64,000 bases of DNA from the IMG/VR virus record IMGVR_UViG_3300022752_000027, positions 32,001 through 96,000 of that record. One strand, given 5' to 3'. Shown here one piece after another: positions 4,598 through 24,422 of the stretch. The first letter of the stretch is position 1. Each line of letters begins with the position of its first letter. This DNA is from a virus. Position numbers and translations under genes: made by a program. The notes beneath the pieces were generated by a model that was not told the origin of the DNA, made no database searches, and saw nothing but the letters and a program-made list of their open reading frames with translations.

Positions 4598-7500
4598 ATG
4601 GTAGATAACTTTCAGATACCTACTGGTAATCAAGGGGTAGATCCTATTGATCAGTATCTTACTACTCTTGCAAAAACAACACAGTATTTAGATCAAGCTG
4701 TACCCAGATTAGAACAAGGCATAGATCAGATATTACCTCCTCAAGCAAAAAATAAGTCTCAGTATACTGGTTTTAACCAACAGAAAGCTGATGCAGCTTT
4801 GGGTACTTATAATGGTATGGCTTCGTTTACTCCTAATAATACAAAGCCAAAACAAGGAGGAAACGTTGATTATATACAAGGACTGATTGCATCAGCAATA
4901 TCATCACCCATTCCTACATCTGGTGCTGCAAGCCAAGTAAGAAAAACTGGTTTTGCAGCTGGTCCAGATAAATTAAACTTTGATAGGTATTATGCACATA
5001 ATGCATATAAGAAACTTGGATGGAATCCTTACGTAGATAACGAGGCTATTTATAATGCTAATAGTTCTTGGACAGATGATTTTGGAAGAGCATGGGACCA
5101 GTGGGGAAAGCTTGCATCATTAGGTTTTAAACAGACTGCCCAAAATTGGGATGATTTGTTTACTTTAAATACTGCTGGGGATACCAAAAATGCCAGAGAA
5201 ATGAATAGATTAATGTCTATTTCATCATCTACAAGAGGTGGTATTGGTGGTTTTGTTACGAATCAATTTGCAAATTCTGCCTACACATTTGGTGTAATGG
5301 GAGAAATACTTGCAGAAGAAGCTGCATTATGGGGAGCAACTGCATTAACTGAAGGTGCATTAGCATCACCTGCCGTAGCTAGAACTGCAGCCAATATAAA
5401 AAAATTATTTTCTGCGGGTAACGCCGCTGAAAATGCTGCAGATGCCATAAGAGCAAGTAAGACTGTTGAAGAAGCAAAATCTATGACTACTGCCGTAAAT
5501 TCTGTTCAGGATGTTTCTCAAGCTAGAAAGTTTTGGAATGGTGTGGCTGGATTTATAAATCCATTTTCCGATACTGCTGAGACAATAAAGAATATTAGAA
5601 CAGGTGCCAACGGCTACGATAAATTAACAGATGTAGCTAAAGCCACTAAAACATTTGGAGCATTCTTTAGGGATATGCGACTCATGAATACAGCACTAGC
5701 AGAATCAAGATTAGAAGGAGGCTTTGTACAAAATGAAGTCTTCAATAAACTTATTCAAGATTGGAATAAGAACAATGTTGTTCCGCCAGATGATATAGCA
5801 GCAAACAAAATGCTTAAGCAAGCAAAAGATGCTGGTATTAGAACAACAATGATGAATATGCCAGCAATTCTATATTCTAATAAGATTGTATTTGATAAGG
5901 CATTAAACGGATTCAAACCATTTAGAGAAACCTTAGATGGTAGTCTTGGTACAATGGTAAAGAAACTAGGTGGCAAGGGTAAGGCATACGAAGGATTTAT
6001 AGATACGGCTAATCCTAAAACATGGTTTACTAAAAGAAATTTTAAAAGAATTGGTAACCAGTTCAAGCCAGCAAACATAGCAAAAGGAGGAATGAGATAC
6101 TTATCTGCCAACCTAGCAGAAGGATTGCAGGAAGTATATCAAGAAGCTATAAGTGAAGCCACAACTAATTACTTTACACAGAAGTATCTTAATGCAGATA
6201 GAGCAGGTTACTTGTCATATGCTGCTGCATTAGGTGAAGGATTTGGAAATCAGATATCTGGTAAAGGTGCTGAAACATTCTTATCTGGTTTCTTGATGGG
6301 AGGTCTTGTACAAGGACCACAAGCATTAGCATTTCAGTATGCTCCGCAGGTAGTTAAAGACTTTCAGGAAAGAAGAAAAGATCCAGCAAAGTATGCTGAA
6401 AGACAAAATCTTAGAAAGCAACAACAAGAAAAGATAACTAACTTCCTTAATAAAGTAGCAGAAGACCCTAAAGCCGTGTTTGATCCTGTATATGCTAATC
6501 TACAGGCACAAAAGGACTTTGCAACAAAGATGGATCTAGCTGAAGCTGATGGTAATAAGAAAGAACATAAAGATGCTTCTCAGGATTCAATACTTGAACA
6601 TGTACAACTTCTTTTAAATAAGGGATATATTGATTTATTAAAAGATCAGATTTCAAGTTTTAAAGGACTAAGCGATGCTGAATTACTTCAGGCATTTGGA
6701 TATAGTCAAGAAAATGGAAATGCTAATGAGTATAATAAATCTATTAGGGAAAAACTAAATGGTGTAGAGGCAAAGATTGAAGAGATTACCAAAAGACATG
6801 AGAAGTATAGTAGTATAAAGAATCCATTTGATCCAGACTCTGATGAGTTTCTTGATTATGCAGGATTTGAAACTGCAAGACAAGCAGCTATCTATAACGA
6901 ATATACTTTTAGCCAAGCTGAAAAAAGAATGGCTGGTATTCTACAGGAGACTTCTAAATTTGCTGGAGGTGCTGTTGCTGGTACTATTACTAATCTTTTT
7001 AATCTAGATCAGTTAAATAATGAAATCAAACTTTTAAAACAAGAGGCTACAGTATTATCTCAGGGTGATGCAGAGCAAAAGAAACTTGCAAAGAAAAAAC
7101 AAAAGGCATTAGATGCATTAACTGCCCTTAGAGGAAGTATTGAACTGTATAGTCAAGACCTTGAAAAGCATAGAAAAAGTCTTGTAGATAAGGAAGCAAA
7201 AAAAGAATTATCAGAAGACGGCACACCAGAATATTTAGAATATTCAAGAAAAGAACTTGATAATGATTTAAGAAAATACATCTCTACAATTACTGGACTA
7301 CCTCTAGATGATGCATCTATGGATAAACTGGTTATTGATTTCCAGGATTATTATGAATTAGATCATGACAAACGTGTAGCTAGTGTTAACGTAAATAAAC
7401 TTAATGATCCTAACTTCTTCTTTAAGACAGCAAGAAGATTTAGTGAATCACAAAGAGAAACTCTTAAGGCAGCACAGAAATATATAAATGATGCCTATGC

Positions 7501-8470
7501 TGAATTCATGCGTAGGAAAGATAGCAATCAGTTACTAGGGGACTTGTACGATAAGTATAAGGTATTTGTACTACCTGAAGATATTGCTGATTTTGTTGCT
7601 GGTAAAAAACTACCTTCAGAGTTTGTTGATGTGGCTACCAAAGTTCCTCTTGAAAAAGACAGTCCTAAGTATGCCGAAATAATAATGTATCTCAAAGAGT
7701 TTGAAGAAGCTATGGGATACAAGTTTGAAGGTATGCCAGAGATTGTAGAAGTAGAGGAAGAAAAACCTGAAGAGGTTAAAGAGGAAGAAGTAAGTCTACA
7801 ACCTGAAACTCCAACAGTAACTAAACCAGTTACTACAGATATGGCTGTAGGAGATATTCCTAAAGACCTTATTGCCCAATTACGTGCACAATTTAGAATT
7901 GATAATAATAATATGATTAATGCAGGGCAGACTGCTATGATGGAATCTGAATTCTCCAAATGGGTTCAGACTAGTTCTAGTGCTGCTAACATTATTTATA
8001 ACTGGAACATGGCTAATAACCTTATAGATAAGAGTACACCTAGACCACAAGTTTCAGAAAAAGCAACTGGGGTTTCCACAGAATTAGTTAAATTTGAAGA
8101 GTTAACAGAAAACACTGTACTTATAATGAAAGATACTGGCAAGTTCCCATTAAAGCGCGCAAGAGTTATTGAAACTGATGCAGCTAATAGAACTATTACA
8201 GTTCAACCTGTCGGTACCGAAGATAGAGTAACTTTTATAGAAAGTGAAATACCTAATGAAATTGCTAGTATATATAAGACAGGAGTAGTTGCTCCTGAAG
8301 CCACCCCAGAAGTTACCTCTGGAGAACAGCAATTGTCAAATGAAAATTTAACTGCTGTTACTACTGAAGAGGAACTTATAAATAGCATTAACGAGGACGT
8401 GGAAAAAGCCAAGTCCATGACAAAAGAAGATAGAGATAACGACCTTTTAAACTCATTAGGCTGTAAATAA
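4598..8470 (+). CDS. Large virion cargo/ejection protein, 1290 aa
   Basis: Ala/Gly-rich hydrophobic segments, an AEGLQEVYQ-type motif, coiled-coil regions and an acidic linker. Tightly coupled to the vRNAP gene. Confidence 0.65.
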   Translation: MVDNFQIPTGNQGVDPIDQYLTTLAKTTQYLDQAVPRLEQGIDQILPPQAKNKSQYTGFNQQKADAALGTYNGMASFTPNNTKPKQGGNVDYIQGLIASAISSPIPTSGAASQVRKTGFAAGPDKLNFDRYYAHNAYKKLGWNPYVDNEAIYNANSSWTDDFGRAWDQWGKLASLGFKQTAQNWDDLFTLNTAGDTKNAREMNRLMSISSSTRGGIGGFVTNQFANSAYTFGVMGEILAEEAALWGATALTEGALASPAVARTAANIKKLFSAGNAAENAADAIRASKTVEEAKSMTTAVNSVQDVSQARKFWNGVAGFINPFSDTAETIKNIRTGANGYDKLTDVAKATKTFGAFFRDMRLMNTALAESRLEGGFVQNEVFNKLIQDWNKNNVVPPDDIAANKMLKQAKDAGIRTTMMNMPAILYSNKIVFDKALNGFKPFRETLDGSLGTMVKKLGGKGKAYEGFIDTANPKTWFTKRNFKRIGNQFKPANIAKGGMRYLSANLAEGLQEVYQEAISEATTNYFTQKYLNADRAGYLSYAAALGEGFGNQISGKGAETFLSGFLMGGLVQGPQALAFQYAPQVVKDFQERRKDPAKYAERQNLRKQQQEKITNFLNKVAEDPKAVFDPVYANLQAQKDFATKMDLAEADGNKKEHKDASQDSILEHVQLLLNKGYIDLLKDQISSFKGLSDAELLQAFGYSQENGNANEYNKSIREKLNGVEAKIEEITKRHEKYSSIKNPFDPDSDEFLDYAGFETARQAAIYNEYTFSQAEKRMAGILQETSKFAGGAVAGTITNLFNLDQLNNEIKLLKQEATVLSQGDAEQKKLAKKKQKALDALTALRGSIELYSQDLEKHRKSLVDKEAKKELSEDGTPEYLEYSRKELDNDLRKYISTITGLPLDDASMDKLVIDFQDYYELDHDKRVASVNVNKLNDPNFFFKTARRFSESQRETLKAAQKYINDAYAEFMRRKDSNQLLGDLYDKYKVFVLPEDIADFVAGKKLPSEFVDVATKVPLEKDSPKYAEIIMYLKEFEEAMGYKFEGMPEIVEVEEEKPEEVKEEEVSLQPETPTVTKPVTTDMAVGDIPKDLIAQLRAQFRIDNNNMINAGQTAMMESEFSKWVQTSSSAANIIYNWNMANNLIDKSTPRPQVSEKATGVSTELVKFEELTENTVLIMKDTGKFPLKRARVIETDAANRTITVQPVGTEDRVTFIESEIPNEIASIYKTGVVAPEATPEVTSGEQQLSNENLTAVTTEEELINSINEDVEKAKSMTKEDRDNDLLNSLGCK

Positions 8471-8471
8471 A

Positions 8472-11400
8472 ATGATAAATTGTAGTCTTACACCTGACCA
8501 AATCAGAACCTTACGAGTAAAGATTTCAGGTGACTTACTAGATATTCTAGGTAGTCCTGATGCCCAATTTGATGTAAAATCTTATTTGAGGGATCTTTAT
8601 AATTTTATTGAAGCTGGATCAAACGGAAACAAAAATCTTGCATTAGACTATGCAAGAATGGGATCTGTAATTATATCTCAGTTGGTTACAAATAGACCGA
8701 CTGATATTGCCAAGCTTTTATTTAAAGGTCTGGATCTCAATGAGTTAATGAAGAAAAACATTGAGTTTGCAGATCCCACTAATGGATTAAATCTGGTAAA
8801 CGAATATGTTGCACCAATTGTTTCTGAAGAGACTGTAGAAGAAATTGTTGCTGAAGAAGAGAAACAAATACAACAAAAAAAAGTAGAAGACAAGATTTCT
8901 AGTACTGGACCTACCATTGAAAGATTACGTCCAACAACTGCAGTATCTACTACTATAAATGAATTAGTAGATCCAGATGATGCAAGTCTTGGGGCTGATC
9001 CAGGAATGCGGTACTACACAAAATTTGTACGTGAAATACTTACAAACTATATTGGCAAACGTGTAGGAACTTCAGAATTTTCTGGAATAGATTATCCAGG
9101 TATTTATGGTGGATTATTTATCACCATGATGCGCTACAATCAAATACCTGTAGCACAACTCCATTCTAAAATGGACCTGAGTAGAGCTGAAGACAAGCAT
9201 AAGTATGATAATGATTTTGTCTATGTAATAACTGATGAGAATGGTTTTCCGGTAACTTTTGATGAAAACTATAAAGTATCAGGATCTGGTAAATTAATTT
9301 ATTATAATACCAGATTCCTTCCTGTAAAACAAGACGGAAAATTTATTTTAACAAATGTTAAGAACGTCCAGAATCCTAAGGAATTATCTAAAAACCTTGG
9401 CATAAGTGAATTAGATGCTGAGAAGATGTTAGATGCTCAATTTAGGGCACTAGAACAAGCTTATGAATATCTTAAAGCTAATCCAGAAGGTAAGCTTCTG
9501 TATTCAATACGTGGGGGGAGTTACGGTACAGTTGTAAATGAAAATGCTGCTTTTGTAGATCCAAAATCAATAGATTTTGAAAACGCGGCTAAAAAAGTAA
9601 TGCTTATTAATAAGCAACAAGCAGCTGAAGCAACAGGATCATCAAATTCTAAGGGTGGTTTTTATCTTACTGCTACTGGTAAAGGCATGATGTTTATGAA
9701 AATTAAGAAGTTATCTGATACAGATATTAATCTTATTTTCAACGTACTTACTAAGAATCTTACTAACCAAGCTGGTCAACCTGTATCACTCGAGACAAGA
9801 AAGAATATCATTCAGACATATATAAAAACGTCTCCAAATGATTTATCTATATCAATAGATTCTACGAACAATAAACTAGTCCTTAAATACAAGGGTGAGA
9901 TTATTGACTTAGATAACGTAGATGCTGTAAAGAATGCCATTGCTAGAGATAAGACAGGTAACCTCCGTGAATATACGTTTGCAACAAACAAGTTCAATGA
10001 CGAACAAGCAATACCCCTCTATAGTGTAGAGATAGATGAAAGGACTGGTGGAGCATATATTTCTGGTATTAAGCCCATGTCTCCGATTGAATACATGAGT
10101 CATGTATCAGAAGTAAAAGTAGAACTTGAACCTGATGGAACTATAAAGCAGTATAATGCATATTTTAGTTTAACCTCTACGCCAGAGACTATTGGAAAAA
10201 CTGTAGTTAAAACAGAAGCCCCTACTGCTGACCCTACAATTAGAGAAAAGAAAAATGAAATAGTTGATCAGTTATTTAGAGGTGAGGAAGTAACAGGAGA
10301 TATTCAGAGACCACAGAACAGTGTTACTCGTTTTGAATTCATAAAGCCTGATGGTACTGTAGTCAATTTCTACAACAGGAATGCTGAGCCTATAAATGAA
10401 TCAGACCTCAATAAGAAAGCTAGATTAAAACTAGTAGAGAAGGTAACTACCGAAGATGGTAGAGAATTCTATAATGTTGTAGAAGTATACATTGGAGATA
10501 AGTATGTAGGCAACATTCAGGAGACAGACTTTAGACAACCTAAAAAAACTGAAGAGGCTATTGCAAAGGCTGAACCTATTGTAAAAGAACAAGAGAGTAA
10601 ATCATCAAGTGATGCAGATACTATAAGTAAGATCCTTAAGAATAATGATCTGCTTAAAAGATTACGTAACAAGCTTGATGACCAGACCAATGTCAAGGCT
10701 ACTGCAGAGCAGATAAAACTGGCCAAAGAATGGTATGAGAACAGTCCTCTTTCTAAGTTTATTCCATTTACTGTAGCATTTAATATAATCAATACTAAGA
10801 CCAGAGGATCTATTGCTACATGGGACGTACATGGTATTACTCTATTCAAAGGATCTAACTATTCTGATCTATACCATGAAGCATGGCATGGCTTTACTCA
10901 GATGTTCTTGACTAAAGAGCAAAGGGATTCATTGTATGCAGAGGCTAGAAAAAATAAAGGAACCTTTAAGAGTTTCAGAGGACGAGAAGTATCATATGCT
11001 AATGCTACCAGAGAAGAACTAGAAGAGAAACTGGCAGAAGACTTTAGAGAATTTATGTTGTCTAAAGGCAAGAAGGTAAATGAGAAGGCACCGGTAAAAA
11101 ATAAGATATTCAAACTTTTATTAGACTTATTAAACTACCTGTTTGGTAAGACTAGTGTACAGGATGTACAGGATAATAGCATGGGTAACCCTGTTATTAG
11201 TGAGATGTTTGAGAAACTAAGAGTAGGAGATATAAACGAGTATACGTTTAATCAGGCTAATGCTGAATTCTCTTTACTTAATAGTACTATACAACCATTA
11301 GATCCTACCATGGATGGTCCTGGAACCATCTCTAGACAGGATGCAAAATTACTGGTAGATACTACAGATGCATTAATTGGGGAACTAATTGATAAACTAA

Positions 11401-14400
11401 ACGAAGCAGAGAATACTAAGACATTTACTAGAGCACTGCTACTAGATAAGGAAGGAAGAACCCTTGCATATAAGTATGTAGAGGAACAGCTTACTAATAA
11501 GCTAGAAGAACTCCTACTAGAGCATAATGCTATGGATGCTGATGCTGATAAGCAAGAGATTGACTATAAGATTAGTTTGCTTGCATATGCATTGCGCAAC
11601 TTTGGTGATAGTAACAATCCCTTCAACACATTCGGTCTTGTAAAATACCATGGTCAGACTTCAGAATTCTTGGAATTTGAGGATAGACTTGGTGATATGC
11701 CTGAGGATGTCAATGTATACGAACGTAATGAATTTGACCGTAAGGCTGGTAACGAAACTGCTATGAAGGCATTAGCAGGTACTTCCCTACTCTATACTAT
11801 AAGATCATTGTATTCACATGATGCTAATGGTAATGTAGAAAAGAACATGCTTGGTTTCCCGAAACTTGCTGACTTTAATAGAAGCTGGAATAGGATTACT
11901 AATATTACTGAAGGGTCTAACAACGTAGACGATATTTTTAAGAAGCTTCAGGATGCATCTGCTGATTACCCCATTATAAAACAGTTTATTGATAAGGTAG
12001 GTAGTCCTGCTAATCTGGAGAACTCATCTGTTAGACTTTGGTCAGACATAGAAAAGATTATGACCATGCCTCGCATTGGTCTTGTAAGCCTCAGAGTAAA
12101 GGTAGAGAATAGTAAACCCGAAGGTTCTGAGAAGATTAAAAAGACTGTTATTGTAACAGCTACTCAGGCTACTGGAGAATATACTAAGGTTGGTAGAAAA
12201 TGGGATAGTCAATTTGCTATTGCAACAGGTCCTTACATTACCGTAGATGAGAATAACGTCAACACTCTTAATATTGATAAGGTACTAGCAGATTTTCCAG
12301 CTGTTACATTTGATAATGCTTTCAGGTTTATGGAAGCCGTAGGTATGCCATTAGAATCATCTAAGGTTGCTGAGAAAGCATTTAGAGAATCTAACATGCT
12401 TGTTGATGTTCGTAATATTCATACAACTCTAAAGGGAATTCAGGAATATCATAATCAGTATTCTCCTACTAAACGTTTGACAATTACCAAACCATCTGAA
12501 ATTCTTAAAGACTTTAAGGTAAAGATAAGTTTGGATCCAGGTGTTTCTGATTCTGAAAAAAGAAGAGCAATAAGTACGCAGATAAAACTTGGAGGAAGTA
12601 CAACTACTTTTAATAATCTTCAGAAGTTTCAACTAAAATGGTCTGACGACTTTTCGGATACTACTGTATCTAATGCAGAGAACCAGAACCAGTATGAAAG
12701 ATCATTAAGAAGTACAGCTTCTCAAATGATCTCTAAGATAAATGCTGCTAATACCGAAACTGAACTTACGCAGGATGGTGTTACTAATGCAGATGATTTA
12801 AGTATGAATCATTTGTCCCGTAGACGTAATCCGTTTGTAAAAACATCAGCTTTCTTCAGAAGACTGTTTGATAAAAACGGAGAAAAGAAAACTGGCATTG
12901 TAAATAATAAAATGACTACGGCTAAAATAGACCTGATGAATATGTCAGGGGTAAGCCGAGAGTTAATCAATGTAAAAGGTATTGTTGAGAATTCTGGTAT
13001 ATCATCATCTAGCGCAGATGGAGTTACTAAGAGACTAGAAGACATGCTTATGATGATGTTGTATGGTGTCAATGAAGCAACACGTCACGCTGATAAGTCT
13101 ACTACATATTTATATAAGGTTCTAGATGAGCAAGGCAATGTACACTTAATTGATATTGCTTCTTTCTCTGATGCTGTTGGAGAAAACAGTTCTACGGGGG
13201 TACAGAAATACGTAAACCAGCTTGTACAATATTTGGCAAGTGAATACGAACGTATTCAAAAATTAGAAGATGGTGATGAAGCTGGAACTGTTACGGTAGG
13301 TAAATCTAATTATTATAAGACAGGTACTCAGTTTGCAATCTTTGATAGAATTTTATCTGATACTACTAAAAACAAACTGAAAACTTTCCGTAGTGCCAAA
13401 GCAAATAGCATTAGAACTGCTGAAACTTTTTATCGATACTTGAATGATCCAATCAACAGAGATCTTAAAGATACTGTTGAGAAAGAAATCAAAGAGTATC
13501 TATTTAGTAGAAGTGGGGTCATTACTGAAAAATTAAATGAAGTAAACTTCTTTCAGAATGATCAGCTTGTAGATGAGCTTGTTAAAAGAATGCTCCGCAC
13601 TAAGAAAAAGGGATATGAGAAATCTGAAACCTTTACAACGTTATCCAGAGATAGAAAGAAGGAGATTGTAGATTCAATAGCTATTGCCTATACCGCAAAT
13701 GACTGGTTGCATAAATATGAATCTACTCTTTTGTTCTATGGTGATCCTGCATTATATGACCATAGCAAAGATGAATTCTTTAAAAGAAATGCTGGTTTCT
13801 CTGCTACAGGAGACATTCCTCGTACAGATAAATATATGATTGAGTATATAAATCAAAAACTTCAGGAGAATTCTTTAGCCGGTAAATTAGGTATGAAGCC
13901 TAAATCATTTGGCAAAGTAATGTCTGCTGCAGTAATGCAGGATACAGCTACAAAATCAATTTATCTAGAGGATTATCTTAAGTATGCTAAAGAAAAAGAA
14001 GAGGCAAGACTAAGAGGCCTTAACTTATCCGATGAGAAAATAAATGAAGCATTAGCAAAAATTGAGGAAATCTTCAATGATGCATATGCAGCTATGAAAG
14101 AAGGTGATGGTCAAGGTTGGATCAACTTTGATGCATACAGATCTTTATTGTTATCTCTTAATAAATGGTCTTATTATCAGGAACAGCTCTATAATAAAGT
14201 AGTAAATAATGAACCAGTAGATGTAAGTGAATTACTTCAGTTCTTCCCTGTTAAGAAGATGCAATACTGGGGACCACTTAAGACAGACGGTCTTCCTGTA
14301 TATGGATTCCATAAGTATTCTTTGATGCCGTTAATTCCTAATGTTACCGTAGGTACTCATATGGAAACACTACAGCAAAGAATGTTGGAGCAAGGTGTAG

Positions 14401-17400: not shown

Positions 17401-18488
17401 AAATATCTAACCTTAGAATTGGCGGAAGACCAAGAGGAAAAGATATAGAAAGACTTTATGATAACCTTCAGGAACTTTCAGATCCAACAGTAAGAAAAGT
17501 AAAAGATTCTTTTGAGAATGCTGTACTAAGCAATCTGTTTCAGAAGATGACACACTTTGCATTACTTCAGTCTGGTATTGATACAGGAAGTACATTTAGT
17601 CTGATTCCATTTGTATCAAATGAAAGTTATCTTAATCTAGTTAAGGAACCATATGAACAGTTCTTAGCTGATTCTGATACTAGACCACTAGATTTATATG
17701 ATAACTTGTTTGAAGCACAGTATTCCGAGGAAAGTAACAAAGCTCTGAAGGTAAAAGTAAAAGCTTTTGCTAAATCCATTTATGGTATAACACCGTATGA
17801 AAGATATACAAGGGAGTATATATCTACTCCTAATGAAGAAAGTGTAGAAATTACAGCCCTTGATAAAGTTAGAATAGCAAAAGATAACTTAACTAATACT
17901 TTAGTATTTGCTCCAATCAGTACCACGATGCTTACTGAAGCTATAATGAAAGAATTTGCTGAAGCAATTAAAGCATCAGGAAAAAAACAACTTGTAGTAT
18001 TTAATGAGATAGATGGAAGAACTAAAAATGTACAGGGTAATAATTCTGTATATAGAGCAATGGGTGATATGTCCTATGGTATTGTAACTAAAAAAGGACC
18101 TATGCCTACTAAACCTGATGGTAAACAGGATAAACTAGCAATGTTTACTGACCAGACCCTAGATAACAATAAGACTATGATTGACGAAATGATTAAAGGC
18201 CTTGCTGCAAAACAAGCCGAAGGTTATGAGTTAATCTTTGATCTTAATGGCTATGGTCAATACATGGCAGGATACAATGAATATGCACCAACCGGAAAAG
18301 ACAAACCTGATTTTGATGCATCAGCTCCAGAAACTTTTAACTATCTTTCGCAGCAGTTATTTGAGAACTTTGGATACTTAAATCCTAATTACTTAAAGAC
18401 ACTTGAGGGTAGAAGAATTGTACAGTCTAGACAGCCTGTAACAGATGACGAAATATTTGACCTTAAAAAATCTTGTAAATTAGCGTAA
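8472..18488 (+). CDS. Virion-encapsidated single-chain DNA-dependent RNA polymerase with N-terminal zincin-like domain
   Basis: Catalytic GGDFDIDK (DFDID at nt 15456-15470), preceded by RIPTQG and DGQGW motifs, as in crAss-like vRNAPs such as phi14:2 gp66. HEAWH zincin motif at nt 10875-10889 with a downstream EEKLAE. Confidence 0.9.
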   Translation: MINCSLTPDQIRTLRVKISGDLLDILGSPDAQFDVKSYLRDLYNFIEAGSNGNKNLALDYARMGSVIISQLVTNRPTDIAKLLFKGLDLNELMKKNIEFADPTNGLNLVNEYVAPIVSEETVEEIVAEEEKQIQQKKVEDKISSTGPTIERLRPTTAVSTTINELVDPDDASLGADPGMRYYTKFVREILTNYIGKRVGTSEFSGIDYPGIYGGLFITMMRYNQIPVAQLHSKMDLSRAEDKHKYDNDFVYVITDENGFPVTFDENYKVSGSGKLIYYNTRFLPVKQDGKFILTNVKNVQNPKELSKNLGISELDAEKMLDAQFRALEQAYEYLKANPEGKLLYSIRGGSYGTVVNENAAFVDPKSIDFENAAKKVMLINKQQAAEATGSSNSKGGFYLTATGKGMMFMKIKKLSDTDINLIFNVLTKNLTNQAGQPVSLETRKNIIQTYIKTSPNDLSISIDSTNNKLVLKYKGEIIDLDNVDAVKNAIARDKTGNLREYTFATNKFNDEQAIPLYSVEIDERTGGAYISGIKPMSPIEYMSHVSEVKVELEPDGTIKQYNAYFSLTSTPETIGKTVVKTEAPTADPTIREKKNEIVDQLFRGEEVTGDIQRPQNSVTRFEFIKPDGTVVNFYNRNAEPINESDLNKKARLKLVEKVTTEDGREFYNVVEVYIGDKYVGNIQETDFRQPKKTEEAIAKAEPIVKEQESKSSSDADTISKILKNNDLLKRLRNKLDDQTNVKATAEQIKLAKEWYENSPLSKFIPFTVAFNIINTKTRGSIATWDVHGITLFKGSNYSDLYHEAWHGFTQMFLTKEQRDSLYAEARKNKGTFKSFRGREVSYANATREELEEKLAEDFREFMLSKGKKVNEKAPVKNKIFKLLLDLLNYLFGKTSVQDVQDNSMGNPVISEMFEKLRVGDINEYTFNQANAEFSLLNSTIQPLDPTMDGPGTISRQDAKLLVDTTDALIGELIDKLNEAENTKTFTRALLLDKEGRTLAYKYVEEQLTNKLEELLLEHNAMDADADKQEIDYKISLLAYALRNFGDSNNPFNTFGLVKYHGQTSEFLEFEDRLGDMPEDVNVYERNEFDRKAGNETAMKALAGTSLLYTIRSLYSHDANGNVEKNMLGFPKLADFNRSWNRITNITEGSNNVDDIFKKLQDASADYPIIKQFIDKVGSPANLENSSVRLWSDIEKIMTMPRIGLVSLRVKVENSKPEGSEKIKKTVIVTATQATGEYTKVGRKWDSQFAIATGPYITVDENNVNTLNIDKVLADFPAVTFDNAFRFMEAVGMPLESSKVAEKAFRESNMLVDVRNIHTTLKGIQEYHNQYSPTKRLTITKPSEILKDFKVKISLDPGVSDSEKRRAISTQIKLGGSTTTFNNLQKFQLKWSDDFSDTTVSNAENQNQYERSLRSTASQMISKINAANTETELTQDGVTNADDLSMNHLSRRRNPFVKTSAFFRRLFDKNGEKKTGIVNNKMTTAKIDLMNMSGVSRELINVKGIVENSGISSSSADGVTKRLEDMLMMMLYGVNEATRHADKSTTYLYKVLDEQGNVHLIDIASFSDAVGENSSTGVQKYVNQLVQYLASEYERIQKLEDGDEAGTVTVGKSNYYKTGTQFAIFDRILSDTTKNKLKTFRSAKANSIRTAETFYRYLNDPINRDLKDTVEKEIKEYLFSRSGVITEKLNEVNFFQNDQLVDELVKRMLRTKKKGYEKSETFTTLSRDRKKEIVDSIAIAYTANDWLHKYESTLLFYGDPALYDHSKDEFFKRNAGFSATGDIPRTDKYMIEYINQKLQENSLAGKLGMKPKSFGKVMSAAVMQDTATKSIYLEDYLKYAKEKEEARLRGLNLSDEKINEALAKIEEIFNDAYAAMKEGDGQGWINFDAYRSLLLSLNKWSYYQEQLYNKVVNNEPVDVSELLQFFPVKKMQYWGPLKTDGLPVYGFHKYSLMPLIPNVTVGTHMETLQQRMLEQGVDYAMFQSGSKINTITNEEGKVDKFYNDNTNKTDQGVAFANPAYTFTKNNIFLDYFKDQLEVNDAYKGSVTFPTQLRTLIEEGLMENGVPTDWKPKLKDKSERIKKWKEETDKEDSNNYRLLNLYEAKLRRLVKLKKEKLKKEIGNKPEDLVKFIRKELTRREMAEHSIDFVDFDAQKNKFKNSLDLSLMADTIERALVAVVQKNLINQKVNGESLVQVAGTGFEKANFRKPSKEEIKEYGQRGLRFYHLKDGKTKAMQIKVAMQGKFKELLKLQDVRDLAREQEISELDALNMRLKDQEWVNNNRDLITSVAVRIPTQGLNSMEFMEIAEFLPESAGNIIILPAEIVGKTGGDFDIDKMFTLFPNIKIDENGLAQVESGDTIAGIENDILFITKEILEKEDNFLSLITPNTTITLKAIAEQIAEKLKGKKQKRSATDIFESEVNLEKHQSNNIGKMILGIIAVNNTFSTIFNRTGLVLLPERVVTSTESGNVYGRQTLELPHNTIDGNISLSSLYSADGIDKIADLISQMINGSVDVAKDDWIFDLQADKEAISKIVFMIQAGVPAKQVALFMSQPIIREYIRKQKMLRSKFNEPLGIKDPGTYYRITARDQILFGKEFGFGLKKKDYEKEGTVKKWMLWPTIERLAETADKNLFSEKSLEDNIKSKEYTDVDRAVFAHYLEIEEMANGVTNLTQKLNFDTSKTSTLFEARTKLSDLNDLANGISQESIGMIINNSPKGAFKIQDFIIDVFKDMFPLRDGDKLNDHISESLLARDKKFRQKLSTLKKRIGMTDDEDVINKYRSDLISFIFQQHYYKFDQNAKTYNGVDLTYDIQEVKSLNNGAFVKDGVLYVDRAKIKEIFNSERYKSGQAWAYAIAPLDPSVLSLYDKDVAEALYSKYTYQREINRSIATNSFENVSKTKEFFEYKKELKDDPNADFKAYEMVLRDRTLDGLNYHGHMFFGKRAYAKQIMALKDTNPELFEKYQFLSDLEIVNTKYGVTEISNLRIGGRPRGKDIERLYDNLQELSDPTVRKVKDSFENAVLSNLFQKMTHFALLQSGIDTGSTFSLIPFVSNESYLNLVKEPYEQFLADSDTRPLDLYDNLFEAQYSEESNKALKVKVKAFAKSIYGITPYERYTREYISTPNEESVEITALDKVRIAKDNLTNTLVFAPISTTMLTEAIMKEFAEAIKASGKKQLVVFNEIDGRTKNVQGNNSVYRAMGDMSYGIVTKKGPMPTKPDGKQDKLAMFTDQTLDNNKTMIDEMIKGLAAKQAEGYELIFDLNGYGQYMAGYNEYAPTGKDKPDFDASAPETFNYLSQQLFENFGYLNPNYLKTLEGRRIVQSRQPVTDDEIFDLKKSCKLA

Positions 18489-21400
18489 TGAACTCTTGTC
18501 CGATACCATCAGAATTTGAACCATTAGTAGAACATGCTAAGTCCGTAGGTATACCTGAAAGGTCTGCTGTAAGTCAGGCATTAAGAGCATATATGATTCA
18601 TAACTCCAATCTAAAGCCAGGAGAAGAACCTAGTATGCCAACTAATTATGAGTTCAATAAGATAATGGATGATTATAATATCTTCATTAACTCTCCTGAT
18701 AGGCAAACGGTTACAGAAGCTCCAGTAGGTTCTAAGGATTACTTTGCTGATATAGAAAATGCATTTCCTTGGTATAAGGTTATAAGAGAAGGTCTGCAAG
18801 TTGACACTGAATCTCAGTCAAATCTTAAAGGTCGTGCTATTATAAATGCTATTGCAGAAAAACTAAGTAGCAATTTAGGTGTACCCTATCAGTTTGTTAC
18901 TGCTGCTGAGGCACAAGAACTTACTAAAGATGTAAATATTTGGTCTGGACAACCTGCATTTTATTTCGGAGATACTATTTATATCCTACCAGAATTAGCA
19001 ACAGAGAAATCTGTCTTCCATGAATTTGCTCATCCATTAGTAAGAGCTATTGCAACAGCTAATCCTGAGTTATTCAAGAATCTGTACAAGCAAGTAATGG
19101 CCACATCGAAGGGTCAAGAATTACTTGACCGTTCAAAGAAAGCTTATCCTTCTGCTGCACCAAATGATCCAATCATAATGGAGGAAGTATTGGTTATGGC
19201 TTTAACTCAGGCAGCAACAGACACAACTGATTCTGCATTTAACAAGTTCATTTCCAATCTGTTATATGCAATCAAGCAACTTCTACGCAGAGTATTTGGA
19301 AAAGTAAAAGTTGAAAAACTTAATCCTAATACTACTATTGGGGAGCTGGCAGATATGCTGATGATGGAGAAGTTTGATATAGATACAAAATCTATTAGCC
19401 GTGAAGACATTGCTGCTTACATGACTGAGTATGATAACCTTATTGAGTCTATTGATAAGTTATCTCAGAGTACATTACAGGGGTCAACTGATGAATTATT
19501 CAATATGATCTCTGGTCATATTCAGCTTATAAAAAACAACAAGGACTATAAGGCAATGGATCAGATCCTAAAGGATTTGTACCAGAGATCTGACCTGAAA
19601 GAAATTTATGAGAGTTTAGCACCATACCAAAGTAAAAACGAGTATTTAATAAACGAGATGACTCGGCTCCAGCAGGATGCAGAGTTTGCTAAACAACATA
19701 CAAAAGCATTCCTTGATAGTCTGTTGCGCCTCAATGCAATGACAGATAGAGTACATACTGAACTTATCAATCTTGTGAAGGATATGAATTCCCAAGATAA
19801 TGTAGGTAAAGTATTTTACTTTAACAACATTATGAACTCATGGGATGAGTTCTTAAATGGTATGGAGACTACCATTAATAATGAACTACAGTCTGGAGCA
19901 ATTAAGCCGGACAATCCTATTATATCATTAGTTGGAGGTATCAGAAGAAAGATATCTAATGCACAGAAGACAGCAAACAAAGTATATGCTGAAGGTGTAT
20001 CACAGGTTCTTAAGTCTCAAATAGCACCAATGAAGACTGCTATTGATGAGAAGTATGACCAGATTATGGAGGATCTCCGTAAAAGAAATGCTCCTGCAAG
20101 TATTATAGCACAGAAACAAAAAGACTATTGGGGTCTTGAGGGACCAGAACTTGCTGAATTCCTAGACCTTAAGAATAAAAAAGATAAGGGATTACCAATG
20201 TCTTCTGTTGAATCTCATAACTACGAGATTCTAAAAATGAAGAGTTATAGAGATGGTGCATATCTTACTGATGAGAAGATTGATTACCTAATGACTGGCA
20301 GACTTGGTGATGGTCATGCTCTTAATTCTTTTATAGAAGGTTTTGTATATAACCAAGATCCAATTGTATTTGGATTTGCCGGATGGGTAAAGGATAATCT
20401 TACTGAAGTATTTACCTCATCACAAAGAAAAGGTAATTCTTTTCTTAATGAGGTTAAGCCATTACTAGAGGCTGCTGGTTATAACCAATCTAACCCTGCT
20501 GCATTCGGAAGAAGAGCAACCTTTAGAGATAAGAAAGGTGGTGTAGATAAAGATGGTAAGTACGTCACTAAAGATGTAAATACTATTATCAATCCTTGGA
20601 AAGACTATAGGGCTGATATTGCTAGATTAGAAGCAGAGATTAGAGCAGCAACTGAAGTAGCATATTCATCAGGAAATAATGATGAGGTTCTACGACTTAA
20701 GAAAGAAAAACGAGACTACGAACAGAAGTATTTTCATACCCCATATACAGAAGAATACTATAAAAGATTTAGTGTATTTAATCAAGGTCCTGGAGATATT
20801 ATTGGCGCAAAAGCTGAGGCTGCTAGAAATGAATTATTATCAAAAATTCAGAATCTTACTACATCAATTGGTATCTCTACAACAAATGAGAACTTTGATA
20901 CTAGAGATGAACTAGCTAATCTTTGGAGAGAATACAGACAGCTGCATTCTAACTATACATCTTCGGGTCAATTAAAAGATGCTGAAGGAATTAAGATTGC
21001 AGAAAGACTGAGAGAATTTAGAAATGCATCTAAGGATCTATACGATAATACTCTTATCCCTGAGTTGTTTACTAGTTCTCTTGCTGCATATGAACAGTCC
21101 CTTATTGACCAAGGCTATGAGAAATGGGGTGTACCATTCATGAAGCTGAGAAATAAATGGATTGAAAAGAACACCAGAACTGTAATCAAAGATAACTTCT
21201 ACGCAGAGCAAAAAAGAATTACAGATGAGATTAAGCAGATAAGTAGCAAGCTACCTAAAAATCTACAGGCTGAGTTTGATATAAGCAAACACTATGAGAA
21301 GCTTCTGCAGTTGATGAATCCTTACAGAGATGAGGATAATCAACCAGAAGCTACAGCAATGGACTTGCGTAACATCGAAGCCATTAAAGAAACTCAGGAA

Positions 21401-24220
21401 TTAATTAATCTTGCAAAAGAAAATCTACCTAGACTTACTGGTCTGACACAACTGGAGCATGCTACTCTTAGTAATTACTACGAAAAATTATCTGAGGGAG
21501 AACCTGTTACTAAAGAAGAAAGAGAAGAAGTAAAAGTACTATTAGATAAGAAGTCACAGTTTGGATTATCTAAAGAAGATAAGGCTAGACTGTATGAATT
21601 GTATGCGGAATTAGGAGAATTACAGAAGTCATATCCCACAGACTATTACATGGATATGTTTAACAACTATCTGAGTTTAGTTGACATGGATCTTTTAGAG
21701 TCAAACTTTGACATGAAGGATCTCACTATGGATACTGCAGACAGAGTTTTGAATATGGACTTCTATAATACTATAGTTAGCACTAATCCAGAATTCAAAG
21801 AATGGTTTGATAAAAATCACATTATCAAAACTGTTACTGATAAGTTTGGAGTAAAGACTAGAAAGATAGAACGTGTAAAGGCATGGAGTGTAGTAAGACC
21901 AAGGAACATACAATACTATGACATATTCAGCTTTACTAATTCTTTAGGTCAGCCTGAGTCTATTGTAGGTATGCCTAACCACCTTTATTATGAAAGAACG
22001 GTAAAGCAAAAGTTTGTTACAAAGCCTGTATCTGTACTTGAAGCAATTGAACAGGGAGATATTACTAAGGCCAACATGGATAATAAAGGTAACTGGTTAC
22101 CTAGATTAGACATTGACGATAAGAAGTATGTAAATGAAAAGTTCTTTAATATCCGTGACACGGATAAGAACTTATACAATGCTATTATTGCTTTAACTAA
22201 ATGGCACTTTACTTTCCAAGAGAATAGTCCTAATAGTTCTAAGTTAGGTTTTGATATACCCCGATATAGAAAAGAAGGTTACGAATCTAGAATGGAATAC
22301 TTTACCGCCGAGGGTAAATTAGAAAATCCTATATCTAGATGGTGGAGAAGATTTAAATCATTGTGGCAACCCTCACCTGATGATGCCGAAGAAGGATACA
22401 ACTTTAAGGATCAGATGATGATGATGGATGGTGAAGTATACAATGATCAGAATGCTGGAATTCCAATCACTGGTCTATCTGCATTAGAAGCAGATGACGT
22501 ATCACTAGATCTTACTTATGGTATGTTAAAGTTTATGGTATCATCCGAAAAGCAAAGAAAGCTTATCGAGATGAATCCAATGGCTAGAGCATTGCAGATG
22601 GTAATGAGAGGTTCTGAAGATGCTATTAATGAATTTAAAAACATTAATAAAAGAACACAGAAAAATAACAGCACCTGGAATCTTGTTGGAGAAAAAACAA
22701 CACTAGGTAAAAGCAAAGGAAAGTCAGTAAGGGAAACAGCAATAGATAACTTTATAGAAAGAGAATTTGAAGGAGTAGTACGCAAGGGTGTACTAGGTAA
22801 AGATAAAGACAATGCATTTGTTAACAAAGTAGTAGATAATATCATGAGATTATCTGCCTTTGGATACTTTGCTATGGACATACCTAGTGGTCTGAAAAAC
22901 TCTTTTTCTGCTAGAATACAAAGTATTCAAGAAGCAGCTGGAGGTAAGTATTACAACATGACTAACTATGCTAAAGGAGTAGCTTGGTCAAATAAAACCA
23001 TGTGGGAAATAAGTCTTAACGTAAATAAGTTTGGACCTAAGTCACATGATCAGCAGCTCGTTGAAATATTTGATGCTGTGCAAGGAAGATTTGAAGAAAA
23101 GTTTGCAGATCATGGTTCAAGATCATTAACTAAAGATGCACTTGGTGGATTGACCTGGATGACTAGCTTCCGTAAATGGACAGAATTAAATTCATCGCTG
23201 TCTATATTCGGCGCAATGCTGCATCACGAAAAAAATGTAGAGCAAACAATTAATGGAGTTACTAAAAGAATTGCATATATAGATGCATGGGAGACAGTAG
23301 ACAATCAAATAAGATTAAAAGAAGGTGTAGACCCTGAATGGGGGATTAATGGTGCTAAGTTTAAAGCATTTAAGAATAAGGTACAAGGTGTTAATAACAG
23401 CCTGAACGGTTCTTTTGCTAAGTTTGATTATGCAGAGGCTGATAAGTTTATGGCTTTCAGATTTGTAATAGCCTTTAAACGCTGGTTCATTAGAATGTTC
23501 TTAAACAGATATCAGTACAGAGGTAGTATGCGTAATCCTAAATACAGATACGACGCTGCTGTAGGTGATACTGTTATGGGATTCCATGTTGAAGCAATGA
23601 GAGCATTATTTAGAGGAATACAAAGTAGAGGAGAATACTTTAATTTCTTATCCCCATCTGAGAAAGCAGCATTGTGGAAGACAACTATGGATGTAGCATA
23701 CCTTATTTTATTCAGCATGGCTATATCAATGATCTTTGGATTTGATGAAGATGATGAAGATAAGTTTGAAAAACTTAGAGATAGATCAGGACCTCTTCCA
23801 TTCTTTGGGGTAAGTGAAAATGAAGCTGACTTTAAATTAGGGGGATGGCTAACAAACCATGCACTACTTATGACAATGCAACTTAAGAATGAAACGGTTC
23901 AATGGTTACCTTTGCCTGGACTAGGTGCAGATAACTATCTAGAGATGCTTAAGATGGATGCAATAGCAATGAAAAATACTTTAGATAACTATAAGAAGAT
24001 GGGTGGTGCATTAATTCTTGTTTCTGGTAATGCATTATTTGGAACAGATAGTACTAAAGCATATTGGGATCAAAGAGAAGGACCATACTCATGGATGCAA
24101 GAAGGAGAAGAAGGAAGTAAAGCATTGAGTTATTTCTTTAGATCATTCGGTGTTACAGGTAAATCATTAGATCCTGCACAAGCAACAACTAACTGGGTTA
24201 AATCATCAAATTGGAGATAA
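18488..24220 (+). CDS. Large virion cargo protein with zincin-like HExxH domain, 1910 aa
   Basis: HEFAH (nt 19019-19033) followed by EEVL, and a C-terminal hydrophobic helix VAYLILFSMAISMIFG. TAATG overlap with the vRNAP stop codon. Confidence 0.7.
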   Translation: MNSCPIPSEFEPLVEHAKSVGIPERSAVSQALRAYMIHNSNLKPGEEPSMPTNYEFNKIMDDYNIFINSPDRQTVTEAPVGSKDYFADIENAFPWYKVIREGLQVDTESQSNLKGRAIINAIAEKLSSNLGVPYQFVTAAEAQELTKDVNIWSGQPAFYFGDTIYILPELATEKSVFHEFAHPLVRAIATANPELFKNLYKQVMATSKGQELLDRSKKAYPSAAPNDPIIMEEVLVMALTQAATDTTDSAFNKFISNLLYAIKQLLRRVFGKVKVEKLNPNTTIGELADMLMMEKFDIDTKSISREDIAAYMTEYDNLIESIDKLSQSTLQGSTDELFNMISGHIQLIKNNKDYKAMDQILKDLYQRSDLKEIYESLAPYQSKNEYLINEMTRLQQDAEFAKQHTKAFLDSLLRLNAMTDRVHTELINLVKDMNSQDNVGKVFYFNNIMNSWDEFLNGMETTINNELQSGAIKPDNPIISLVGGIRRKISNAQKTANKVYAEGVSQVLKSQIAPMKTAIDEKYDQIMEDLRKRNAPASIIAQKQKDYWGLEGPELAEFLDLKNKKDKGLPMSSVESHNYEILKMKSYRDGAYLTDEKIDYLMTGRLGDGHALNSFIEGFVYNQDPIVFGFAGWVKDNLTEVFTSSQRKGNSFLNEVKPLLEAAGYNQSNPAAFGRRATFRDKKGGVDKDGKYVTKDVNTIINPWKDYRADIARLEAEIRAATEVAYSSGNNDEVLRLKKEKRDYEQKYFHTPYTEEYYKRFSVFNQGPGDIIGAKAEAARNELLSKIQNLTTSIGISTTNENFDTRDELANLWREYRQLHSNYTSSGQLKDAEGIKIAERLREFRNASKDLYDNTLIPELFTSSLAAYEQSLIDQGYEKWGVPFMKLRNKWIEKNTRTVIKDNFYAEQKRITDEIKQISSKLPKNLQAEFDISKHYEKLLQLMNPYRDEDNQPEATAMDLRNIEAIKETQELINLAKENLPRLTGLTQLEHATLSNYYEKLSEGEPVTKEEREEVKVLLDKKSQFGLSKEDKARLYELYAELGELQKSYPTDYYMDMFNNYLSLVDMDLLESNFDMKDLTMDTADRVLNMDFYNTIVSTNPEFKEWFDKNHIIKTVTDKFGVKTRKIERVKAWSVVRPRNIQYYDIFSFTNSLGQPESIVGMPNHLYYERTVKQKFVTKPVSVLEAIEQGDITKANMDNKGNWLPRLDIDDKKYVNEKFFNIRDTDKNLYNAIIALTKWHFTFQENSPNSSKLGFDIPRYRKEGYESRMEYFTAEGKLENPISRWWRRFKSLWQPSPDDAEEGYNFKDQMMMMDGEVYNDQNAGIPITGLSALEADDVSLDLTYGMLKFMVSSEKQRKLIEMNPMARALQMVMRGSEDAINEFKNINKRTQKNNSTWNLVGEKTTLGKSKGKSVRETAIDNFIEREFEGVVRKGVLGKDKDNAFVNKVVDNIMRLSAFGYFAMDIPSGLKNSFSARIQSIQEAAGGKYYNMTNYAKGVAWSNKTMWEISLNVNKFGPKSHDQQLVEIFDAVQGRFEEKFADHGSRSLTKDALGGLTWMTSFRKWTELNSSLSIFGAMLHHEKNVEQTINGVTKRIAYIDAWETVDNQIRLKEGVDPEWGINGAKFKAFKNKVQGVNNSLNGSFAKFDYAEADKFMAFRFVIAFKRWFIRMFLNRYQYRGSMRNPKYRYDAAVGDTVMGFHVEAMRALFRGIQSRGEYFNFLSPSEKAALWKTTMDVAYLILFSMAISMIFGFDEDDEDKFEKLRDRSGPLPFFGVSENEADFKLGGWLTNHALLMTMQLKNETVQWLPLPGLGADNYLEMLKMDAIAMKNTLDNYKKMGGALILVSGNALFGTDSTKAYWDQREGPYSWMQEGEEGSKALSYFFRSFGVTGKSLDPAQATTNWVKSSNWR

Positions 24221-24224
24221 TAGA

Positions 24225-24368
24225 ATGGCAAAAACAGTATCAGTAAAGAATGCCTTTGCACCTAAAGGCAGCAGAAAAAAAAGACCAGGTGTAATATCTA
24301 AGACAAAGAACAGTGGTTTGAAGTCTAGTAAAAACTATAAGAAACCTTATAGAGGTCAAGGAAGATAA
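24225..24368 (+). CDS. Small basic protein, 47 aa, ending YRGQGR
   Basis: Manual translation MAKTVSVKNAFAPKGSRKKRPGVISKTKNSGLKSSKNYKKPYRGQGR; below the ORF-track cutoff. Confidence 0.7.
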   Translation: MAKTVSVKNAFAPKGSRKKRPGVISKTKNSGLKSSKNYKKPYRGQGR

Positions 24369-24369
24369 A

Positions 24370-24397
24370 GAAAAACCCCGGATTTCTCCGGGGCTTC
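24370..24397. terminator. Intrinsic terminator between convergent modules
   Basis: AAAAA-CCCCGGA-TTTC-TCCGGGG-CTT at the convergence of the + and - gene blocks. Confidence 0.75.
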
Positions 24398-24422
24398 CTC
24401 ACCACAATAACAAACTAACACA

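Follow-up and report, generated by a model that had tools for sequence, protein, structure and literature searches.

Among the described phages that package a giant RNA polymerase together with partner proteins and expel them through the tail, the N4-like phages (Schitoviridae; gp50-gp52 of N4 and gp71-gp73 of DEV) and the crAss-like phages offer the closest parallels to the proteins treated here. The N4-like ejection proteins are nearly free of cysteine (Cys); gp50, gp51 and gp52 of N4 contain 0 Cys in 4,294 amino acids (aa), versus ~1% in the other N4 proteins. Suppression of Cys in ejection proteins of this kind has been described across 191 viruses (PMC11445570), in a text that refers to a proposal that this residue is selected against because the proteins traverse the periplasm, where disulfides form. 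For the crassvirus crAss001, the proteins gp47, gp49 and gp50 were detected in virions by mass spectrometry and are treated as cargo that exits partly unfolded via the tail (PMC10172136). The polymerase of phage phi14:2 and its two neighbours are likewise described as virion components, in a preprint according to which some phages fuse all three into one polyprotein (10.1101/2020.03.07.982082). The subject of the current report is the corresponding set of three giant proteins, here called A, B and C (1290, 3338 and 1910 aa, respectively), in a stretch of 64,000 nucleotides (the window; positions 32001-96000 of the 123,735-bp genome in IMG/VR virus record IMGVR_UViG_3300022752_000027), in which the only Cys of these proteins are located at the adjoining termini of consecutive partners.

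The window trio resembles the N4-like proteins in being nearly Cys-free and differs from them in its four terminal Cys, whereas the N4-like polymerase is one chain and the N4-like proteins have no terminal Cys whatever. The crassvirus polymerase also differs in its two-barrel fold (PDB 6VR4) and in belonging to a module that is often distributed over 2-4 genes, with each cut marked by Cys; the Cys pair is a new element relative to the Cys-suppressed ejection proteins of the N4-like phages. The crAss001 cargo proteins gp47, gp50 and gp49 are homologues of A, B and C and have terminal Cys of their own, at -3 in gp47, at 5 and -9 in gp50 (which has one internal Cys in addition) and at 5 in gp49, where negative positions are counted back from the C-terminal residue. 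They differ from the window in that gene A is on the opposite strand and the cut between A and B comes after an HExxH motif, versus ~800 aa before it in the window. The fused polyproteins of some crAss-like phages have the same A-B-C segments, joined by peptide bonds at the sites that correspond to the Cys pairs of the window; judged by homology, A, B and C are pieces of what these related phages encode as one ~5,600-aa polyprotein. The Crassvirales include the most abundant human gut phages, and how they deliver a cargo of ~5 MDa that includes the early-gene polymerase is an open question that the rule described below addresses.

Cysteine census and identity of the three proteins

The genes for A (4598..8470), B (8472..18488) and C (18488..24220) follow one another on the + strand and specify 6,538 aa in total. 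Counted by script on the predicted proteins, these contain four Cys altogether, at -2 of A, 4 and -4 of B and 4 of C. At the A/B junction, the single Cys of A, residue 1289 of 1290 (end LGCK; TGT codon at 8462..8464), is the C-terminal partner of Cys4 of B (MINC; TGT at 8481..8483). At the B/C junction, residue 3335 of the 3338 in B (SCKLA; TGT at 18474..18476) faces the single Cys of C, at residue 4 (MNSC; TGT at 18497..18499). A preliminary description of the window, made by eye, had reported four Cys at these adjoining termini in ~6500 aa and none at the outer ends of the trio or in the 1108-aa protein encoded upstream of A. The script count agrees with it to the residue in the first respect and bears it out in the second, and no internal Cys had been overlooked.

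With uniform placement, the probability that four Cys would each come to lie within 4 residues of a different inner terminus is 3.4e-12. In the genome as a whole, seven consecutive proteins (9,889 aa) contain just these four Cys, a frequency far under that of the rest of the proteome, where the remaining 95 open reading frames (ORFs) have 434 Cys in 28,074 aa (1.55%); at a rate of 1.5%, the probability of four or fewer Cys in 9,889 aa is 3e-58. The other proteins of the window have roughly 1-2% Cys, and among 163 ordinary ORFs of related loci a Cys occurs within the first 7 residues in 4.3% and within the last 10 residues in 13.5%. Chance as a source of the window pattern can be set aside.

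The 3338-aa protein had been labelled a virion RNA polymerase in the preliminary description, and the label is confirmed by a phmmer match of B to PDB 6VR4, the RNA polymerase (gp66) of phi14:2 (E 1e-22). The match consists of three significant stretches (B residues 1865-1995, 2284-2362 and 2480-2562) and includes the catalytic GDFDIDKM stretch; the DxDxD motif of B, DFDID at residues 2329-2333 (15456..15470, +), is aligned with the DFDID of 6VR4. A megablast search of the phage collection with the polymerase gene gave no match, and a tblastn search with the polymerase core matched 98 of 50,697 phage records, every one at <60% identity; nearly all of the matches listed (60 of the 98 records) are crAss-like phages. 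Because the matches are mostly crAss-like and below 60% identity, the window is assigned to a divergent member of the Crassvirales. C is homologous to crAss001 gp49 (E 9e-10) and to GenBank gp076 of phi14:2. BLAST matches to A were confined to its own clade, and A was placed in the upstream family, that of crAss001 gp47, by its position and by similarity at the level of the clade. PDB sequence searches with A, C and the 1108-aa protein gave no significant match, and the six large proteins had no match in PHROGs and none in Pfam that reached the curated cut-off.

B and C are labelled zincin-like on account of HExxH motifs that are conserved in clade alignments (HEAWH at B residues 802-806, 10875..10889; HEFAH at C residues 178-182, 19019..19033; both +) and of annotations in related records. 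Among the large proteins, Pfam showed no protease family at E <= 0.01 and PHROGs showed none; the phi14:2 preprint (10.1101/2020.03.07.982082) is also cited as support for the protease assignment.

Conservation of the terminal cysteines

Related loci (designated by L numbers) were gathered with the window polymerase (17 loci), the phi14:2 polymerase (80) and crAss001 gp50 (52), and records of named phages were added to them. Each ORF was taken to start at its first ATG and was assigned to a family by BLAST comparison with reference proteins for A, B and C. The 152 loci with a B protein formed 84 clusters at 90% identity, of which two TAG-recoded ones were set aside to leave 82 representatives, and a junction was scored as positive if a Cys lay <=10 residues from both adjoining termini. 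Across the representatives, 117 of the 122 junctions between separately encoded module proteins had both Cys: 55 of 57 for B/C, 43 of 45 for A/B, 14 of 14 for AB/C, 3 of 3 for A/BC and 2 of 3 for A/AB, where AB and BC denote fused proteins. Three of the five misses are artefacts of gene calling, which brings the corrected count to 120 of 122. In L065 a start codon was miscalled, and an ATG just past the B stop gives MVC; in L138 and L148 the A gene is broken, its C-terminus still ending in Cys. The last two misses both come from L083, an assembly that contains N.

The outer ends of the module present the opposite picture. No Cys was found at the C-terminus of C (0/78), and one was found at the N-terminus of the first protein in 2 of 57 cases (L048 and L079); in both of these an A protein that had escaped labelling is encoded upstream, its single Cys at -2 or -18. 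The relatives taken together (449,557 aa) have 260 terminal and 134 internal Cys, i.e., 0.03 internal Cys per 100 aa. The N-terminal Cys is at position 3-5 in 122 of 132 proteins and the C-terminal Cys is between the last and the fourth-last residue in 107 of 125, with overhangs of 0-9 residues after the C-terminal Cys and 2-6 before the N-terminal one. The residues that flank the terminal Cys vary, and the codons used are TGT (224) and TGC (33).

Conservation in crAss-like orthologs, on which the significance of the window pattern had been made to depend, extends down to ~22% polymerase identity, and the terminal-Cys pattern is confirmed as an order-wide rule in the Crassvirales. In phi14:2 the Cys are at -1 of A, at 3 and -2 of B and at 3 of C, with no other in 5,398 aa. 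CrAssphage LMMB and cr11_1 have Cys at -2 of A and at 3 of a fused BC protein, as does crAss002 when its BC protein is read from Met33. The pattern is also kept in IAS virus, cr108_1, cr118_1 and cr131_1, and in the TAG-recoded cr4_1 and L066. The LMMB A protein, used as a query for related loci, retrieved 20 near-identical p-crAssphage contigs alone (87-97% identity).

Reading of TAG as a sense codon was seen in L066, L068, L096, L155, L157 and L158, with 12-53 in-frame TAG per giant gene, which agrees with the recoding described in PMC7886860. In TAG-recoded L096 (6160-6215) the giant ORF ends in ICKIVNLKN and the next frame starts directly with DCSPK; Cys flank the stop on both sides, and there is no ATG nearby for the second frame.

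Fusions, splits and displaced genes

The relatives include three fused forms of the module, ABC (3 non-redundant), AB (at least 12) and BC, and the order of the segments in them is A-B-C. The Cys pairs come and go with the cuts. AB-fused proteins have no N-terminal Cys, and those of L054, L058, L061, L071, L092 and L100 have no internal Cys either, the only one left being the C-terminal Cys that faces C. The BC-fused L036, L037 and LMMB retain the A/BC pair alone, the B/C pair being gone, and the ABC polyproteins of L085 (5,520 aa), L089 (5,639 aa) and L094 (5,636 aa) have 0 Cys. The reverse change is represented by L016, where a 739-aa ORF separates B from C. In L014, C is unsplit; its N-terminus is matched by the first 82 residues of this ORF (E 2e-8) and its residues 452-2268 by the 1858-aa ORF that comes after, so that C is split in L016. 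A new Cys pair accompanies the new junction, with one Cys at -6 of the 739-aa piece and the other at position 5 of its successor.

Physical separation of the genes leaves the pairs in place. In crAss001 and likewise in IAS virus, gene A is convergent to the genes for B and C (gp50 and gp49 in crAss001) and retains its C-terminal Cys. In L029 three ordinary ORFs intervene between B and C, each with 2-7 Cys, none of them N-terminal and one at -9; in L060 there is a single intervening ORF without terminal Cys; in both loci the facing Cys of B and C are kept. Pfam gave no match at the curated cut-off for seven ORFs that belong to or adjoin the modules of relatives (573 aa in L060; 1161 and 871 aa in L064; three in L029; 739 aa in L016), six of the seven being located between a B-family gene and a C gene. 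The preliminary description had proposed a chain in gene order. Comparative evidence supports that interpretation in its pairing across junctions and corrects its order by gene adjacency, since the pairs follow the order of the segments in the polyprotein, A-B-C.

The polymerase is also interrupted in ways that resemble introns or frameshifts, and a Cys was found at the break in 0 of 4 such splits; B is split in L059 where it is continuous in the nearly identical L060, and the cuts in cr108_1 and cr131_1 fall within the catalytic motif. A Cys pair at a cut can therefore serve to separate real protein boundaries from intron- or frameshift-like splits, which lack it. In fusions, fissions and concordance alike, complementary Cys sit on two chains where single-chain relatives are continuous. 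The absence of the pairs from fusions and their presence at new and non-adjacent junctions would fit a head-to-tail link that takes the place of a peptide bond.

The same observations bear on the notion that the Cys codons are a signal at the nucleotide level (for translational coupling, a promoter or a terminator) or have survived by chance in disordered tails. The window genes do abut or overlap (TAAAATG, TAATG), and both upstream Cys codons lie within TGTAAAT. The notion is nevertheless hardly credible. The pair is kept where the partners are on opposite strands (crAss001, IAS virus) or separated (L029, L060), the distance to the stop ranges from 1 to 10 codons, TGT and TGC are both used, and the other abutting Cys-free genes of the block have Cys-less junctions. 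Survival by chance has to contend with a probability of 3e-12 for the window alone. A nucleotide signal at the junctions was rejected on the grounds of the convergent-gene cases and the variable spacing.

The position of the A/B cut can be judged from the HExxH segment, which in crAss001 is 185 aa short of the C-terminus of A and in the window is at residue 802 of B. The two segments were aligned by profile-profile comparison (hhalign of B residues 799-920 with the C-terminal region of gp47; 92.4% probability, E 5e-7). In L048 the HExxH follows the cut by 79 aa, and in LMMB the motif is 215 aa before the C-terminal end of A. Because the placement of the motif differs, the A/B breakpoint is non-homologous between lineages, so that the Cys pair marks whichever cut exists; as far as the motif can serve as a landmark, Cys pairs arose at different cut sites. 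The argument is based on the window clade, the crAss001 clade, LMMB, L048, L056, L079, L097 and the AB-fused forms, and the A and B proteins of the 7 phi14:2-type loci that were inspected gave no match to a strict HExxH regular expression. Projection of the breakpoints onto the ABC protein by BLAST is too imprecise for the B/C cut, and an independent B/C breakpoint is claimed for L016 alone. The preprint on phi14:2 (10.1101/2020.03.07.982082) suggests that the fused polyprotein is cleaved, by its own protease. The ABC-fused proteins of L085, L089 and L094 have no HExxH motif; cleavage by such a protease is therefore not evident in them, which fits poorly with the published suggestion.

A rival reading, for which the preliminary description had also left room, is that the terminal thiols bridge a metal (Zn, Fe, Cu or a small cluster) or, in a variant of the same idea, that they act as a "cysteine switch" that caps the zinc of an HExxH site and keeps a zincin-like domain latent. 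A metal bridge would yield an identical pairwise pattern at the junctions, and the motifs are present in B (802) and C (178) of the window and 185 aa before the C-terminal Cys of gp47 in crAss001. Two thiolates alone would make a poor metal site, however, and the terminal Cys have no conserved His or Cys next to them, so that we consider coordination of a metal unlikely. As to the switch, the BC-fused proteins of L036 and L037 have HEFAH at ~2282 and their sole Cys at 7, the AB-fused proteins of L071, L092 and L100 retain the motif with their sole Cys at the C-terminus, the motif of B is 700-1,500 aa from the junction in the window clade, and the 7 phi14:2-type loci without a strict HExxH in A or B keep the A/B pair. 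A cysteine switch on the zincin-like domains was rejected, since the motifs persist in fused forms that have no Cys in their vicinity.

Concordance between facing Cys is high in the raw counts. At the A/B junction both are present in 47 cases, both absent in 12 and discordant in 5, and none of these 5 has an A gene within the fetched locus (L028, L051 and L082 have <1 kb upstream of B; L087 and L088 have ~4 kb upstream and no A). At the B/C junction the corresponding numbers are 69, 5 and 1. Shared ancestry was taken into account with a FastTree tree built on 700 aa of polymerase core; it covers 75 representatives, the other 7 of the 82 having been excluded for want of an intact motif context. 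On this tree, at least 7 changes of state are required for the N-terminal Cys of B, and among 6-7 independent contrasts for A/B the C-terminal Cys of the partner goes the same way in 5-6 and the opposite way in 0. Concordance of this kind speaks to the idea that the terminal Cys form bonds elsewhere, in homodimers or multimers or with the portal, the capsid interior or the tail, and are anchors instead of links in a chain. Several copies of the cargo are thought to be packed in each virion, with 6 given as an example derived from volume (PMC10172136), the structural proteins of the phage in the window are rich in Cys, and virion-block proteins of the Intestiviridae have orphan C-terminal Cys (the 861-aa and 264-aa proteins of LMMB; crAss002 gp30). 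Anchors or homodimers would not cause facing Cys to appear and vanish together, and the assessable discordant cases number 0 at A/B and 1 at B/C. Nor would they explain the empty outer C-termini (0/78) or the two Cys that appeared simultaneously at the new split in L016, and it is improbable that the terminal Cys have such a role.

A putative disulfide-linked chain for ejection

On balance, the distribution described above points to head-to-tail disulfides which, on a Cys-free background, probably rebuild a polyprotein-like chain for ejection. In the oxidised virion the terminal thiols would form A-S-S-B-S-S-C, a nearly linear chain with overhangs of ~2-6 residues. The chain would be threaded in order, partly unfolded, via the portal, the tail and the cell envelope, and the reducing cytoplasm would then cleave the links and release the polymerase and its partners, as the preliminary description had also envisaged. 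All other Cys might have been purged, as in the N4-like ejection proteins, so that stray disulfides would not block unfolding or trap the chain in the periplasm. Cys would thus be excluded except as connectors, a twist on the avoidance of Cys by ejected phage proteins.

The identity of the bond as a disulfide, its presence in virions and its role in ordered ejection with reductive release are what we infer from the pattern. A disulfide is the most likely bond, and it is favoured because the tail and gp57 of crAss001 have disulfides, the outer virion proteins are rich in Cys and no second metal ligand is conserved. The cryo-EM structure of crAss001 has disulfides in the tail barrel, the fibre hubs and gp57 (PMC10172136). 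The same report argues for N-to-C exit of gp45 and for partial unfolding of the other cargo, and names packing and the mutual interactions of the proteins as the probable determinants of exit order. If the linkage exists, the rule would state which ends touch, in what order and by what bond, and the cultured phages crAss001 and phi14:2 make it directly testable. It also suggests a natural design for redox-cleavable, end-to-end concatenation of proteins.

A wider proposal, for and against which we see about equal weight, is that the Crassvirales assemble their separate cargo proteins, once translated, into a "stitched polyprotein" (~0.7 MDa in crAss001) whose single disulfides between extreme termini would make it one strand for passage through the tail. 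The host cytoplasm would unzip it and might thereby time the release or activation of the polymerase, and the Cys pair would have arisen repeatedly at cuts and been discarded on fusion.

Other covalent chemistry would be a very unlikely source of the pattern. Cys is the usual nucleophile in trans-splicing or ligation, thioester or lysine-cysteine bridges and lipidation, and Lys is frequent beside both terminal Cys (at -2, -1 and +1 relative to the C-terminal one). The overhangs (0-9 residues on one side and 2-6 on the other) leave no space for the halves of a split intein or for a signal peptide with a lipobox, the flanking sequence is not conserved, and Pfam assigns neither an intein nor a ligase domain to any of the three proteins. 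Split inteins were rejected on the basis of the overhangs and the Pfam result, and a bacterial lipoprotein was rejected because Cys at positions 3-7 leaves no space for a signal peptide and lipobox.

There are partial precedents for a chain of the kind proposed here among proteins unrelated to phages. Di-chain toxins of the diphtheria and clostridial neurotoxin type have one interchain disulfide that is reduced after translocation. They share the logic proposed for the crassvirus cargo, in that they originate as a single chain and the disulfide holds the segments together while one of them crosses a membrane unfolded, until cytosolic reduction frees it. They differ in being nicked single products with internal Cys, whereas the crassvirus proteins are specified by separate genes, have their Cys at the extreme termini, would form up to four serial links and would travel through a phage tail; the toxins have no sequence relationship to the crassvirus cargo. 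Von Willebrand factor and the gel-forming mucins form linear disulfide concatemers via near-terminal Cys. Their links are homotypic, tail-to-tail plus head-to-head, and are made by Cys-rich domains in the secretory pathway; the crassvirus links would, by contrast, be heterotypic and head-to-tail, with single Cys on a Cys-free background.

A literature search that did not cover subscription papers or supplementary files found no report of the terminal-Cys pattern in crassvirus cargo among the papers listed. The word "cysteine" occurs 0 times in PMC10172136, the phi14:2 preprint (10.1101/2020.03.07.982082), PMC7886860 and PMC13434306, and in PMC11445570 it is applied to N4-like phages alone. In the N4 record (L159; NC_008720, 12524-25524), the major head protein gp56 is also Cys-free, and gp54 starts with MSC.

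Several observations weigh against the proposed disulfide chain and need to be set beside those that favour it. The claim of crosslinks rests wholly on a pattern in sequences. The gut lumen is anoxic and the proteins are synthesised in a reducing cytoplasm, which makes the time and place of oxidation a real difficulty. Outside its Extended Data Tables 2-3, which could bear on the matter, PMC10172136 describes no disulfides between cargo proteins, those it describes being of the tail and gp57 only. In the control for ancestry, the sign test for A/B gives a median p of 0.06 (range 0.03-0.125), a weak test with few events; for B/C there are 3 contrasts, with 2 in the same direction, 0 opposite and 1 unchanged (L064), and a median p of 0.5. 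L064 is also an exception in its own right: its B fragment lacks a C-terminal Cys, the partner that it faces has Cys at 3, and the only spare Cys of the fragment is 288 residues from the end. The geometry is imperfect in cr273_1 gp35 (last Cys at -50), in A of L079 (-18) and in the AB protein of cr10_1 (-11), and several expected Cys are missing from L083, the assembly with N. Finally, B or its fragments contain 7-27 internal Cys in L087, L088, L091, cr131_1 and IAS virus, all of which keep the terminal ones as well; Cys purging is therefore not universal, some gut lineages having escaped it. Complex prediction for the 250 C-terminal residues of B with the 250 N-terminal residues of C (13-row alignments) gave 0.02 and 0.10 relative to a mark of 0.32, and was weighed neither way.

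In L064 (7370-19364) a 1161-aa ORF separates the two pieces of the polymerase (1943 and 871 aa). The N-terminus of this ORF resembles an ORF that intervenes between B and C in L059 and in L060, and the first polymerase piece carries an additional 500-aa tail, in which its only spare Cys is located. Proteins encoded upstream of A in the Intestiviridae have a lone Cys in the C-terminal region, often in a C-G-G-[KH]-K context, for which an N-terminal partner is not evident (LMMB 264-aa protein, -6; LMMB 861-aa protein, -2; crAss002 gp30, -8; cr11_1 gp62, ~-12). The loci concerned are L020 (3774-7273), L180 (4947-6620) and L182 (3559-4365), and the orphan Cys may represent a second, tail-to-tail link.

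Neighbouring features of the genome

Upstream of A, the Cys-free block of the window includes the 1108-aa protein (1269..4595, +; 0 Cys), which would be outside the Cys chain. It represents a family, here called Z, that is conserved upstream of A in the window clade and has 0 Cys in L001, L004, L006, L007 and L010 as well. Before it is a 402-aa frame, open at its 5' end and also with 0 Cys (3..1211, +), which is the 3' part of the gene for a 943-aa Cys-free protein (genome 30380-33211).

Farther upstream, outside the window (genome 6498-21259), virion-block proteins are unusually rich in Cys (445 aa, 2.9%; 186 aa, 6.5%; 1166 aa, 3.5%; 306 aa, 6.9%; 511 aa, 4.5%; 472 aa, 5.1%), and a 1732-aa protein with 0.9% Cys separates this run from the Cys-free cargo block. 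As a candidate reading, the Cys-rich proteins may be components of the tail, stabilised by disulfides as in crAss001. Another Cys-poor virion protein, of 1020 aa with a single Cys at residue 800, is encoded at 58828-61890 (+); it has a weak resemblance to Phage_depo_C of Pfam, below the threshold (E 4.9e-4; 20.9 bits versus a cut-off of 25), and may be a fibre or depolymerase. Small Cys-rich ORFs occur in the early or replication arm at 44508-44768 and 48903-49304 (-), with 7 Cys in 86 aa and 9 Cys in 133 aa, the latter with CxxC-like spacing, and their products are probably zinc-binding. At ~24000-25000 of the window the GC and AT skews both flip sign, where the genes switch from the + strand (cargo block) to the - strand.

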